Below are positions 46,350 to 59,863 of a stretch of 64,000 nucleotides of DNA, piece after piece. A model generated the notes under the pieces. That model did not search any database and had not been told where the DNA came from. It was given only the letters and a program-made list of their open reading frames with translations. This DNA is from Escherichia coli. Its GTDB lineage: Bacteria > Pseudomonadota > Gammaproteobacteria > Enterobacterales > Enterobacteriaceae. Made by a program: the position numbers and the translations under genes. Position 1 is the stretch's first letter; every line of letters starts with the position of its first letter. The stretch is from NCBI RefSeq assembly GCF_030013595.1, contig NZ_CP122768.1. One strand, 5' to 3'.

Positions 46350-46425
<76 letters not shown>

Positions 46426-46479
46426 GTTTAAAAGGCATCGGCGTCAAGCGGATGTCTGGCTGAAAGGCCTGAAGAATTT

Positions 46480-46553
46480 GGCGCGTTAACAAAGCGGTTA
46501 TGTAGCGGATTGCAAATCCGTCTAGTCCGGTTCGACTCCGGAACGCGCCTCCA
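46480..46553 (+). tRNA. cysT: tRNA-Cys (anticodon GCA)
   Basis: ggcgcgttaacaaagcggttatgtagcggattGCAaatccgtctagtccggttcgactccggaacgcgcctcca. Confidence 0.95.
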
Positions 46554-46565
46554 CTTTCTTCCCGA

Positions 46566-46652
46566 GCCCGGATGGTGGAATCGGTAGACACAAGGGATTT
46601 AAAATCCCTCGGCGTTCGCGCTGTGCGGGTTCAAGTCCCGCTCCGGGTACCA
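46566..46652 (+). tRNA. leuZ: tRNA-Leu (anticodon TAA), long variable arm
   Basis: gcccggatggtggaatcggtagacacaagggattTAAaatccctcggcgttcgcgctgtgcgggttcaagtcccgctccgggtacca. Confidence 0.95.
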
Positions 46653-51244: not shown

Positions 51245-51565
51245 TTAGTAGGGGATTTCATCAGTATCTGGCGTGTATTCGATGCAAAGTAACTGCTGGA
51301 TTTTGTCATCGATAGCAGCAATACGCTGTTGGGCGTCGGCGACTGTTTTCTGTTTTTGCTCATACAGCTGCTCGACCTGCAAACCGATGATGTCGATTGG
51401 CTGGGGCTGGTTGACGGTAATTTCAATTTCGCGGCTTTCCAGAAGGATGTACCTGTCTGGAAAATTTTTTGACATATCAACAGTCGCAACAAGCAGCTTT
51501 TCGTGGCTGAAAGTTGAAGTTGCATAATTAATAAAGAGTGTTACTGGGATGGTGCGCGCTTCCAT
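51245..51565 (-). CDS. hypothetical phage protein
   Basis: 106-aa ORF with AAGGAG RBS. Confidence 0.5.
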   Translation of the reverse strand: MEARTIPVTLFINYATSTFSHEKLLVATVDMSKNFPDRYILLESREIEITVNQPQPIDIIGLQVEQLYEQKQKTVADAQQRIAAIDDKIQQLLCIEYTPDTDEIPY

Positions 51566-52561
51566 AGCGACTCCTTGGTGATGTATACTCGGGACCGATC
51601 AGCGAATATTGATCAGCTTCCATAGCGTCAGTGTCGTTGGTCTTTCCTCATCACAAGTTTGGTCACTTGTGATAAATCCGAATGGTTTGGTCGCCGTTCG
51701 GGGTAACTGGCCCGCCTTGTGCGGGTCTTTTGCTATCTAAAGGGTGCCGGTTACGTTTCCGGCGTCGTTATGTTTCCATCACGACCGTACGGGGCTGGTC
51801 TTTCCTGTTTTGAGCTGGTCAGGCTCATGGTCAACGCTGGTCAGGCGTGGTACTTCCTCCGGTCTTTCCCTGGTGTCACGCTGCGGGTTTGGCCTCTCCT
51901 GTTGGGGACTCAGGCACAGCGATAAAACCTGGCTGTGTGAAAAAATGGCCCATCGTGCGGACTGGGCAAAGGCTAAACACAGCAAATTGATGATGGGCGC
52001 CCGGAATCGAACCGGGTAACGGGCAGGGAGTTCCCGTTAAACACCTGTTCACCACAACCGGGAGCGCACTCCGCCATTTCAAAATTTAACGACAAAGCTC
52101 AAAGTTGAGTCGATGAAGTGCGCTCTCGTGTTGTAGCCAGGACTCTTCCCTGGTGGTCACACCGTATCGCCTTGATGGTGAATCAATCGCTCATACCTGG
52201 CTGTGGCTTGCACATTCCGGCTAGCTGCTATGGAGACAACGCGTTAAGGCTCCGCTTCCATCCAGACCGCTTCGACACATGTGCCATATGCCGGCGAAGT
52301 CTTTCCCTCTGTCATCGTGTTGGCGCCGACGCGCAAAATTTGATGCCGTCTTTCCGGCTGTCAGAACGTGTTTCTGAACAACTGCCGCTGGGTAAGCGTT
52401 GTTGATGAAAGTGACTTTACAATTTGTATTTGTAATGGTCAACGTATTTTTAAAAAATAATTTGTAGTTAGGGGCAAAAAAATATTCACTGTGTAAAGGT
52501 GTTTTTGTGTTAGGGGGAAAGTTGCATGCCAGCAGCGGCTGGCCTGGAAATTTGAACTGAA

Positions 52562-52975
52562 CTATTTTGTCTGGTTTTTGGCTTCAAGTAGTTCTTTTAG
52601 CAGTAGATCGAAGTGCTCTCTTTTTTCTTTTAGCTCATTGATTAATTTATTTTTTTCGCTCTCAGGCAGTCCTCTGAATAGTTGCAGTAGAGCCTGTTCT
52701 TGCGGGGTTAGTTCTTGATTGTAATTACCCGGGTGTAGCGTGGATTCATCCAAATATTCACCTTCATTCATGAAGAAAAAATGAACAGGGTATCCGGTCA
52801 CTTTTGCTAGCTTGTCTAATTTATCTTTTCTTGGAGTTACCCCATTACACCATGCCTGAACTGATTGAGCCGTAACCCCAATATGGCGAGCTAACTCAGA
52901 TTGAGACCAGCCTAAGTCTTTTAGAATCCGTTGTAGTCGGCTAGCAAAAGCCATGTTTTTCGTTTTTGTGTTCAT
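52562..52975 (-). CDS. phage repressor-like HTH protein (cI-like)
   Basis: ORF 52562..52990 opens on TTG; HTH (GWSQSELARHIGVTAQSVQAW); divergent from cro-like gene; start uncertain. Confidence 0.7.
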   Translation of the reverse strand: MNTKTKNMAFASRLQRILKDLGWSQSELARHIGVTAQSVQAWCNGVTPRKDKLDKLAKVTGYPVHFFFMNEGEYLDESTLHPGNYNQELTPQEQALLQLFRGLPESEKNKLINELKEKREHFDLLLKELLEAKNQTK

Positions 52976-52994
52976 ACCGTAAGGATACAAGGTT

Positions 52995-53060
52995 TAATTG
53001 TAGGGAGCATTGCAAATATAATTTGTAATTACAGTTATGATTTGTAATGATGGCGCGGAC
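52995..53060. promoter_or_regulatory. candidate operator/promoter region between divergent repressor and cro-like genes
   Basis: Repeated ATTTGTAAT half-sites (ttgcaaatataatttgtaattacagttatgatttgtaatga). Confidence 0.45.
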
Positions 53061-53073
53061 ACAAGGAGTCCAT

Positions 53074-53304
53074 ATGGATAAACAACTGCAAGACAAAATT
53101 CTTTCCGTAATGAGTCAATCCGAGTTAGGGCGGCGATTAGGGAAAAAACCACAAACGGTAAGCCTCTGGTTCAAAGGAAGGGTTCCCGGTGAAGAGGTTT
53201 TGCGCACATCTGAAGCTCTTGAATGGCGCGTGACCCCCCATGATCTTAGACCGGATCTTTACCCAAACCCAGATGACAGCTTGCCTAAAACGAAAGCAGC
53301 TTAA
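53074..53304 (+). CDS. Cro-like HTH regulator
   Basis: ORF 53047..53304; ATG 53074 after AAGGAG; HTH (SQSELGRRLGKKPQTVSLW). Confidence 0.7.
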   Translation: MDKQLQDKILSVMSQSELGRRLGKKPQTVSLWFKGRVPGEEVLRTSEALEWRVTPHDLRPDLYPNPDDSLPKTKAA

Positions 53305-53362
53305 CTGTTGGTGAGCCCCAAATCTGATTAAGCGTAATCAATTTTTAGCGACAGGAGACGCT

Positions 53363-53839
53363 ATGGAAAACCAAGAGGAATTACAAAAAGAGATTTTGAC
53401 CTGGGCGGCAAGGGCAGGGCAGGAACTCGTCACGATTGAAATCTGCCGGGCCTGGTTCAGTCAGGGACGCAATGATGAGTTGAGACTACATGAATTTGAG
53501 GACGCGGACGGCAATGTGGACTGGAGAGCCATCAACAACAATCGGCAGAAAATCTTTCGCTGGTTACGTGGCGAGACAACGGCGGCGCGCCGAAAAACTC
53601 AGGTGCTGGCCAGTGTGATGAAAGCCGTGCTACCCGCAGAACGGCGGGCGCGTCTGGAGTCGCCGGGCGATCCCGTTTTGCTGGCAACGCTGGCGGCAAA
53701 AGAAGGGGTGGAAGCGATTAACGCTGTACATCTCCACTTCGCGCCAGAGATAACTATTCAGGAAATTGACGAAGCAATAGCGGCGCTGGTAGCGACGCGA
53801 GGGGCAGTGATAAGCACTGCGCAAGGCCATCATGCATGA
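53363..53839 (+). CDS. hypothetical phage early protein
   Basis: 158-aa ORF after cro-like gene. Confidence 0.5.
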   Translation: MENQEELQKEILTWAARAGQELVTIEICRAWFSQGRNDELRLHEFEDADGNVDWRAINNNRQKIFRWLRGETTAARRKTQVLASVMKAVLPAERRARLESPGDPVLLATLAAKEGVEAINAVHLHFAPEITIQEIDEAIAALVATRGAVISTAQGHHA

Positions 53840-58649: not shown

Positions 58650-58976
58650 ATGACTAAAAATACTCGTTTTTCCCCCGAAGTCCGTCAGCGGGCGATTCGT
58701 ATGGTTCTGGAAAGTCAGGATGAATATGACTCACAGTGGGCGGCAATTTGTTCCATTGCCCCAAAGATTGGCTGTACGCCGGAGACTCTGCGTGTCTGGG
58801 TTCGCCAGCATGAGCGGGATACCGGGGGCGGTGATGGTGGGCTCACCAGCGCTGAACGTCAGCGTCTGAAAGAGCTGGAACGTGAAAATCGTGAACTGCG
58901 CCGCAGTAACGATATCCTTCGCCAGGCTTCCGCTTATTTTGCGAAGGCGGAGTTCGACCGCCTCTGGAAAAAATGA
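58650..58976 (+). CDS. IS3-family transposase OrfA
   Basis: 108-aa [25 protein letters not shown] recognised as IS629/IS1203 OrfA. Confidence 0.9.
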
Positions 58977-59863
58977 TGCCACTGCTGGATAAGCTGCGTG
59001 AGCAGTACGGGGTCGGACCGGTATGTAGCGAACTGCATATTGCCCCGTCAACGTATTACCATTGTCAGCAACAGCGACATCATCCGGATAAACGCAGTGC
59101 CCGTGCGCAGCACGATGACTGGCTGAAGAAAGAGATACAGCGCGTATACGATGAAAATCACCAGGTATACGGTGTGCGTAAAGTCTGGCGTCAGTTGTTA
59201 CGGGAAGGTATCAGAGTGGCCAGATGCACTGTGGCACGTCTCATGGCAGTTATGGGACTTGCCGGTGTTCTCCGGGGTAAAAAGGTCCGCACTACCGTCA
59301 GCCGGAAAGCCGTTGCCGCAGGCGACCGCGTAAACCGTCAGTTCGTGGCAGAACGACCTGACCAGCTGTGGGTGGCTGATTTTACTTACGTCAGCACATG
59401 GCAGGGCTTCGTCTATGTGGCGTTTATCATTGATGTGTTTGCCGGATACATCGTGGGGTGGCGGGTCTCATCGTCTATGGAAACGACATTCGTGCTGGAT
59501 GCGCTGGAGCAGGCGTTGTGGGCCCGTCGTCCGTCTGGCACCATCCATCACAGCGATAAAGGCTCTCAGTATGTGTCACTGGCCTATACGGAGCGACTAA
59601 AAGAAGCCGGATTACTGGCATCAACAGGGAGTACAGGCGACTCGTATGACAACGCGATGGCTGAGAGCATCAATGGTCTTTACAAAGCGGAGGTAATACA
59701 CCGTAAGAGCTGGAAAAAACGTGCAGAAGTGGAACTGGCCACACTAACGTGGGTGGACTGGTATAACAATCGACGATTGCTGGGAAGGCTGGGCCATACT
59801 CCTCCGGCAGAAGCAGAAAAAGCTTATTATGCTTCCATCGGAAACGATGATCTGGCAGCCTGA
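58973..59863 (+). CDS. IS3-family transposase OrfB (DDE integrase-like)
   Basis: 296-aa ORF overlapping orfA in -1 frame. Confidence 0.9.

Follow-up and report, generated by a model that had tools for sequence, protein, structure and literature searches.

Repeated 21-bp dyads on both sides of a Gifsy/DicA-type repressor gene as probable operators of an Escherichia coli prophage immunity switch

The stretch of DNA analysed here (the window, 64,000 nucleotides) is E. coli prophage, and the region of interest lies around a pair of divergent regulatory genes that are 98 bp apart. The repressor gene occupies 52562–52975 on the minus strand and encodes 137 aa. Facing away from it on the plus strand is a cro-like gene (53074–53304, 76 aa, YdaS family), which is preceded by the ribosome-binding site AAGGAG at 53064–53069. 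A cII-like gene of the YdaT family (53363–53839, plus strand) is the first gene to the right of the immunity-specific module, and the replication genes come next. The module itself, with the putative OL and PL, the repressor gene, the putative OR and cro, spans 52409–53319; these limits are those of the block that is replaced in the heteroimmune E. coli JX2, in which the flanks are near-identical.

The start of the repressor gene was placed at ATG 52975 because this codon is invariant in the relatives described below, while the start given by PGAP, ATG 52954, is absent in a Salmonella relative (L016). Pfam searches with the resulting protein return helix-turn-helix (HTH) families only, namely a short HTH_3 protein without an S24 peptidase domain, and its translation contains no Ala-Gly dipeptide. 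It aligns over its full length with both GtgR of Gifsy-2 (33% over 129 aa, E 5e-23) and DicA (32% over 134 aa, E 1e-17), and both alignments take in the C-terminal motif LLxLFxxLPESEK. Among solved structures, that of the 434 repressor DNA-binding domain is the closest (E 4.5e-5, residues 11–67 on 3–59). Judged by its sequence, the repressor is a short, non-cleavable protein of the Gifsy/DicA type with a 434-like helix-turn-helix. Orthology with RacR was considered and set aside, as only a 33-residue HTH segment aligns (39%).

The initial annotation of this DNA reported ATTTGTAAT-type repeats on both sides of the repressor gene, and all the sequences that it quoted could be located in the window. 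On the left, TTTGTATTTGTAAT lies at 52423–52436, 126 bp past the repressor stop (52562); on the right, TTGCAAATATAATTTGTAATTACAGTTATGATTTGTAAT lies at 53010–53048, in the interval bounded by the start codons of the repressor gene (ATG 52975, minus strand) and the cro-like gene (ATG 53074, plus strand). The 64-kb window contains three exact copies of ATTTGTAAT (at 52428, 53021 and 53040), each adjoining the repressor gene. Taken as a bare 9-mer, this count is only modestly unusual and no more than suggestive: shuffled windows hold 0.77 exact copies on average, five out of 100 shuffles reach three, and the number of matches with one mismatch across the whole window (28 vs. 21) is not unusual.

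The picture changes when the surrounding bases are included. Every exact copy forms the right half of an inverted repeat of 21 bp, ATTACAAAT-N3-ATTTGTAAT, which has a 3-bp centre and TACAA-N7-TTGTA as its core. When as many as three mismatches are allowed, the full dyad is found three times, always in this region, against 0.02 expected, and none of 100 shuffles reaches three. These three strong dyads, labelled OLa, ORa and ORb below, match the consensus at 16–17 of 18 positions, and the next-best score anywhere in the window is 13/18, shared by five sites; the consensus was derived from the same sites that it scores, and the dyad symmetry and the evidence from relatives are independent of that. 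The core alone, with at most one mismatch, has four matches in the 64 kb (OLa, ORa, ORb and ORc), all of them within 52418–53046. When 23 distinct sites from the window and its relatives are pooled, the half-site consensus is A-T-T-T-G-T-A-(A/G)-T, in which T3, T4, G5 and A7 are nearly invariant.

Two candidate sites lie on the left. OLa (52416–52436, TTTACAATTTGTATTTGTAAT) scores 16/18, has a perfect core and is kept in the relatives. OLb (52448–52468, TTTTAAAAAATAATTTGTAGT), with its centre 32 bp from that of OLa, is a weaker dyad of 13/18, a score that in the window is the noise ceiling, OLb being one of the five sites that share it. At the OLb position, a better-matching site (14–15/18) is present in four of the five distinct relatives in which the OL side was examined, and the fifth (L016) has the window sequence with one change. 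On the right, the sites extend across the 98 bp that separate the repressor and cro-like genes. ORa (53009–53029, ATTGCAAATATAATTTGTAAT) scores 17/18 and ORb (53028–53048, ATTACAGTTATGATTTGTAAT) 16/18, their centres being 19 bp apart. ORc (52984–53004, GATACAAGGTTTAATTGTAGG) is a candidate third right operator, in which the core is perfect and the full consensus is matched at 11/18. Positions 52982–52995 and 52998–53002 are invariant across all relatives and the neighbouring bases vary; this invariance could instead be due to a promoter or to a translation signal. In place of three repeats, the total comes to five candidate sites, of which OL has two and OR three.

A promoter scan of 51500–53500 on both strands called a single sigma-70-like promoter. 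This PL-like promoter (52414–52442, minus strand) combines the −35 hexamer TTGACC (52442–52437) and the −10 hexamer TAAAGT (52419–52414) with a 17-bp spacer, which is the stretch that OLa occupies; OLb lies upstream. Transcription from it would start near 52407, and its hexamers in the relatives read TTGAC(C/G) and TA(A/G)A(G/T)T. Neither PR nor PRM was called by the same scan, and both are hand assignments. The candidate PR (53023–53051, plus strand) was read from the sequence as a −35 of TTGTAA (53023–53028), a 17-bp spacer and an extended −10, TGT-AATGAT (53043–53051), and an alternative −10, a perfect TATAAT, can be read at 53017–53022 on the same strand; both candidates would lie under ORa/ORb. 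The candidate −10 of PRM is TATCCT (52982–52987, minus strand), which falls in the invariant block, 7 nt before the first base (A) of ATG 52975, and would start transcription at that A. This position, together with the lack of a Shine-Dalgarno sequence upstream of ATG 52975, suggests that the repressor mRNA is probably leaderless, as is that of lambda cI. On this reading of PRM, the centres of ORc, ORa and ORb fall at about −19, −44 and −63 from the repressor start, close to the positions of lambda OR3, OR2 and OR1 relative to PRM.

The immunity region is widespread. Of 5,426 complete E. coli genomes, 479 carry the 1.1-kb segment, at 95–99.8% identity and always on the chromosome, and several of the carriers are labelled ST131. 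A DNA search of 50,697 phage records returned no phage isolate with the region, the hits being two partial matches (18% coverage) in Stenotrophomonas phages. Protein searches recovered repressor homologues that are 88% identical in Salmonella and 67–68% identical in Klebsiella pneumoniae and others. Among the close E. coli copies, 37 of 1108 columns vary, too few to footprint the sites alone, and within sites they differ at 53039 and 53040 alone (the ORb spacer and the innermost half-site base). More distant relatives were therefore used, namely the contigs that carry the protein-search homologues and one viral contig (repressor 67% identical), a set made up of Salmonella, Klebsiella and further genome and metagenome contigs.

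Every one of these relatives has two dyads 19 bp apart in the interval between cro and the repressor, and those that reach far enough also have one or two dyads, 32–33 bp apart where there are two, at the leftward promoter. The sites are kept in place while the DNA between them drifts. In OR, 48 of 61 columns inside sites are invariant vs. 10 of 26 outside them (Shine-Dalgarno excluded; Fisher p = 0.0005), and in OL the corresponding fractions are 28/42 and 16/49 (Fisher p = 0.0016). Every relative also has an ORF of 157 aa after the repressor gene, at the position of lambda rex (in L024 it is cut by the contig end). Since this ORF separates the repressor gene from PL, the OL sites travel with the promoter and not with the end of the repressor gene.

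A natural exchange of the module is provided by E. coli JX2, which matches the window up to ~52408, just left of the PL −10, and again from ~53320, just past the cro stop. Between these points it has a different repressor, 33% identical and from the same Gifsy-type family, and a different cro. The ATTTGTAAT-type dyad is absent from JX2, where the best score is 12/18 and falls within a coding region. JX2 has a dyad of its own instead, TAAC-N4-GTTA, with two copies downstream of the repressor (34 bp apart) and two in the cro/repressor interval. The repeats hence belong to an exchangeable immunity module and change together with the regulators, and this co-replacement is the strongest evidence for putative operators that sequence analysis can obtain.

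Three other explanations of the repeats have to be weighed against operators of the repressor. That short AT-rich words resemble one another by chance would be in keeping with the five shuffles that reach three exact 9-mers. This is effectively refuted by the dyad count, which no shuffle reaches, by the confinement of all matches to 650 bp and by the retention of their positions in relatives with repressors that are just 67% identical. The repeats might also be promoter elements that recur (hexamers of the TTG... and TAAT kinds, in AT-rich DNA that holds three promoters), with no dedicated binding protein. In favour of this, TTGTAA and TAAT are similar to −35 and −10 hexamers, the DNA between the genes is rich in A and T, and the 9-mer count is, as noted, only modestly above chance. 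Promoters, however, need no 21-bp dyad with a fixed N3 spacing, which is seen here at three to five sites; JX2 has its promoters in the same places with a completely different dyad, and OLb and ORc keep the dyad core with no evident promoter role. We regard this explanation as very improbable.

A somewhat larger, though still slight, probability attaches to the dyads being bound mainly by the cro-like YdaS protein, or by another phage or host factor, with the repressor reading a different sequence. Cro is also an HTH protein and was swapped along with the sites in JX2, so the co-variation seen there cannot separate Cro from the repressor. On the other hand, a search for another repeated dyad common to the OL and OR regions found none, and a repressor that maintains lysogeny needs a site of just this kind, inside the spacer of PL. 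The recognition helix of the repressor, which is 434-like, would, moreover, fit the ACAA/TTGT core, and in characterised lambdoid switches Cro and repressor share their operators, which also counts against binding by Cro only.

With a probability of roughly 0.85, we therefore read the ATTTGTAAT repeats as half-sites of 21-bp dyad operators that serve the immunity switch of a lambdoid prophage. The initial annotation had proposed an OL/OR arrangement in which both sides share one operator half-site. The OL/OR interpretation is supported as far as predicted operators allow: the same dyad occurs at the leftward promoter and in the divergent interval, its position is kept in homoimmune relatives, and it is replaced with the repressor and cro in JX2. 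The single half-site, by contrast, gives way to a larger unit, the complete dyad with its TACAA-N7-TTGTA core.

Under this reading, a dimer of the 137-aa repressor would bind the two sites at PL, with OLa between the −35 and −10 hexamers and OLb 32 bp upstream, as well as up to three sites (ORb, ORa and ORc) in the 98-bp interval between repressor and cro. With OLa, ORa and ORb occupied, the early operons on the left and on the right would be silenced, and lysogeny and immunity would be kept. From ~44 bp upstream of the repressor ATG, ORa may activate the repressor transcript, and from ~19 bp upstream ORc may limit it, since lambda OR2 and OR3 act on PRM from these same positions. The cro-like protein of the YdaS family probably acts through the same sites in the lytic direction. 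Within this scheme we infer the binding protein, the assignment of PR and PRM, the autoregulation and the route of induction. The immunity specificity is an uncharacterised one within a well-known kind of switch.

Induction probably proceeds by an antirepressor rather than by cleavage. Scans of the 64-kb window for a LexA box, with the 20-bp consensus (at most three mismatches) and with CTGT-N8-ACAG, found none, and the prophage runs past the window end. No antirepressor was found among the ORFs at 56.6–60.7 kb, and an IS3 element lies at 58650–59863. In APEC20/16, the immunity region of which is 99.8% identical, a LexA box (TACTGTATAAATGTACAG) stands 22 bp upstream of a 59-aa ORF that belongs to a PHROG of unknown function. 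No similarity was detected between this ORF and the presumed GftA of Gifsy-2, an ORF of 73 aa that lies downstream of dinI.

The transcript from PL would enter a stretch of ~850 nt with no annotated gene (51566–52407) that is conserved in the relatives. This leader has GTCTTTCC-N3/4-TGTCA repeats, which appear in the RNA as six or more UGACA-N-GGAAAGAC repeats. It also has a tRNA-like T-arm, at which mosaic junctions between relatives fall, and ARAGORN makes no call for the tRNA-like element. On the PL strand there is a full-length, sub-threshold match to RprA (34 bits vs. a gathering score of 70), and in the homologue of this host small RNA at 51938–52048 (minus strand) the 3′ half and the terminator are very similar to those of E. 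coli RprA when K-12 and the window are compared. Rfam gives no match above any gathering score over the region, and folding of the leader gives a z-score of −2.1 and no convincing global structure. We consider it a speculative and rather unlikely possibility that OL/PL gates this conserved, ORF-free leader, in place of an N-type antiterminator gene, as a mimic or sponge of a host regulatory RNA or as an RNA-based antitermination device. If this were true, a prophage switch would control such a host regulatory RNA mimic or sponge or such a device.

Defined operators would offer a handle for predicting homoimmunity and heteroimmunity among such prophages, as well as reporters for prophage induction and a means of studying how short, non-cleavable repressors of the Gifsy/DicA type read DNA. 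Conceptually, they add nothing beyond the lambda, Gifsy and DicA paradigms, with which, and with several other phages, the locus can be compared in some detail.

The gene order is that of lambda, i.e. PL/OL, a slot at the rex position, the repressor, OR with the divergent candidates for PRM and PR, cro and a cII-like gene, and the predicted operator is likewise repeated to the left and right of the repressor gene (OL1–3/cI/OR1–3/cro in lambda). The locus departs from lambda in that the repressor is 137 aa long and has no S24 domain for self-cleavage, the candidate operators are dyads of 21 bp (17 bp in lambda), the OL sites found number two (three in lambda), and PL is followed by the ORF-free leader of ~850 nt and not by an N gene. 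The racR-ydaS-ydaT region of Rac shares the combination of YdaS-family cro-like and YdaT-family cII-like genes and the divergent layout. Two phages with other repressors of this family show the layout as well: Salmonella phage SPN3UB has repeats of its own, of the TCAAATTTAATCGATA type, at both the OL and the OR position, with the same 19-bp distance at OR, and Klebsiella phage ST16-OXA48phi5.1 has its own repeat, ACAAG-N5-CTTGT, common to the two positions.

Phage 434 is similar in the DNA-binding domain of its repressor and in the ACAA...TTGT core of its operators. The 434 operators are 14 bp long, ACAA-N6-TTGT, with the half-sites ACAA/TTGT, whereas here a 21-bp dyad surrounds the core ACAA-N7-TTGT and the repressor is without the cleavable C-terminal domain; its recognition helix has Ala in place of both Gln28 and Gln33 of 434. 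The N7 spacing, the 21-bp dyad and the missing C-terminal peptidase domain place this repressor and its candidate operators outside the 434 type, so that the resemblance is one of mechanism and not of membership.

In Qin, the cryptic prophage of E. coli K-12, the repeat TGTTAGTCAT..CTAA is found both in the dicC-dicA interval and at the promoter downstream of dicA, upstream of ydfA, an arrangement like the one described here. DicA represses the promoter downstream of its own gene, and this repression is relieved by the antirepressor Rem (PMC10448788). The operator sequence in Qin differs from ours, and Qin is defective, with a left operon (dicBp) that encodes DicB and DicF. The repressors of Gifsy-1, -2 and -3 in Salmonella (GfoR, GtgR and GfhR) are alike in their length of ~136 aa, in having HTH_3 only and no Ala-Gly cleavage site, and in the C-terminal LLxLFxxLPExEK, and they differ from the present system in operator sequence and immunity specificity. 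Homologues of the Gifsy repressors are found in most E. coli genomes (PMC3121763), and the Gifsy repressors themselves are not cleaved but are displaced from DNA by small LexA-controlled antirepressors (Lemire et al., 2011; PMC3121763).

The DNA between PL, the inferred leftward promoter of the prophage, and the first open reading frame (ORF) of the left operon is a leader of ~850 bp (51566-52407), which lacks annotated genes and any convincing ORF. A sub-threshold Rfam match to the small RNA RprA lies within it at 51938-52048 on the minus strand, which is that of the PL transcript, ~360-470 nt 3' of PL. The match is full-length, with a score of 34 bits (gathering score, 70) and an E of 0.055 when 1.1 kb was searched, and the 3' half of the element with its terminator (AUUUGCUGUGUUUAGCCUUUGCCCAGUCCGCACGAUGGGCCAUUUUUU) closely matches E. 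coli K-12 RprA. Most E. coli relatives carry this RprA-like element, as does the heteroimmune E. coli JX2, which shares the flanks and carries a different repressor and cro, and other sequence takes its place in three relatives' contigs (L005, L017 and L016, the last from Salmonella). The literature on RprA together with prophages, or on RprA-like RNAs, yielded no account of the element found in the window.

Overlapping the RprA-like element is a tRNA-like element (51992-52072, minus strand), a weak tRNA-Sec match with a T-arm, CCCGGTTCGATTCCGGG, at ~52005-52021 on the same strand; ARAGORN called no tRNA here. Relatives begin to diverge directly after the tRNA-like element, which therefore marks a mosaic junction, and it may be the relic of an att site. 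A GTCTTTCC-N3/4-TGTCA repeat, read in the PL transcript as UGACA-N-GGAAAGAC, also occurs at least five to six times on the plus strand of the leader, starting near 51640, 51798, 51862, 52143, 52299 and 52348. These repeats are conserved in relatives, and the z-score for folding of the leader is only -2.1. Three terminator-like hairpins lie on the plus strand, opposite the PL transcript, at 51709-51800, the strongest being GGCCCGCCTTGTGCGGGTCTTTTGC (51709-51727), and they are overlapped by weak Rfam matches of the isrK, isrB and Trp-leader types. This stretch could encode an antisense small RNA just 5' of the first left-operon ORF.

Within the immunity region, a 33-bp stretch of the cro-like gene, at its 3' end (53268-53300), is 100% identical to a CRISPR spacer; the arrays that carry this spacer belong to two or more E. 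coli genomes, among them 2020S05-013-9 and 23CRST004. The cro-like gene is intact in the window and is annotated as frameshifted in E. coli APEC20/16 (L025 20775-21006), a relative whose immunity region is 99.8% identical to that of the window; lysogeny is probably locked in some copies of the prophage. APEC20/16 also carries a near-consensus LexA box, TACTGTATAAATGTACAG, 22 bp 5' of a 59-aa ORF assigned to phrog_340 (box and ORF, L025 33397-33614), and a second LexA-like box at L025 32007. The 59-aa ORF is a candidate SOS-controlled antirepressor. It has no similarity to the 73-aa ORF 3' of dinI in Gifsy-2, which we take to be GftA. The equivalent DNA of the window's prophage would fall past the window end.

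The early right region of the window is interrupted by an IS3-family element (58650-59863) with HTH_Tnp_1 and rve ORFs, and near the matching position APEC20/16 encodes an ORF6N-domain protein. Beyond the left-operon genes, the window has a tRNA-Gly, tRNA-Cys and tRNA-Leu cluster (46350-46652), whereas relatives sharing the immunity region are located at tRNA-Ser adjoining mtfA, and therefore one immunity module may be combined with different integration modules.

All fetched relatives whose repressor is only 67-88% identical have a 157-aa ORF between repressor and PL (L016, L019 and L023, e.g. L019 2431-2904; the L024 contig stops 27 codons into it), which the window does not have. This ORF, which has no recorded Pfam match and occupies the position held by rex in lambda, may serve in exclusion or defence. 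The initial ~45 nt of the inferred PL transcript (52365-52407; CATCAACAACGCTTACCCAGCGGCAGTTGTTCAGAAA...) are kept in heteroimmune JX2 too, and can form an AACAAC/GTTGTT hairpin. This element may act as a signal resembling nut or put, and a similar CATCGACAAC...GTTGTC element follows the respective PL regions of Gifsy-2 and Klebsiella phi5.1, phages with repressors of the same Gifsy/DicA-type family.
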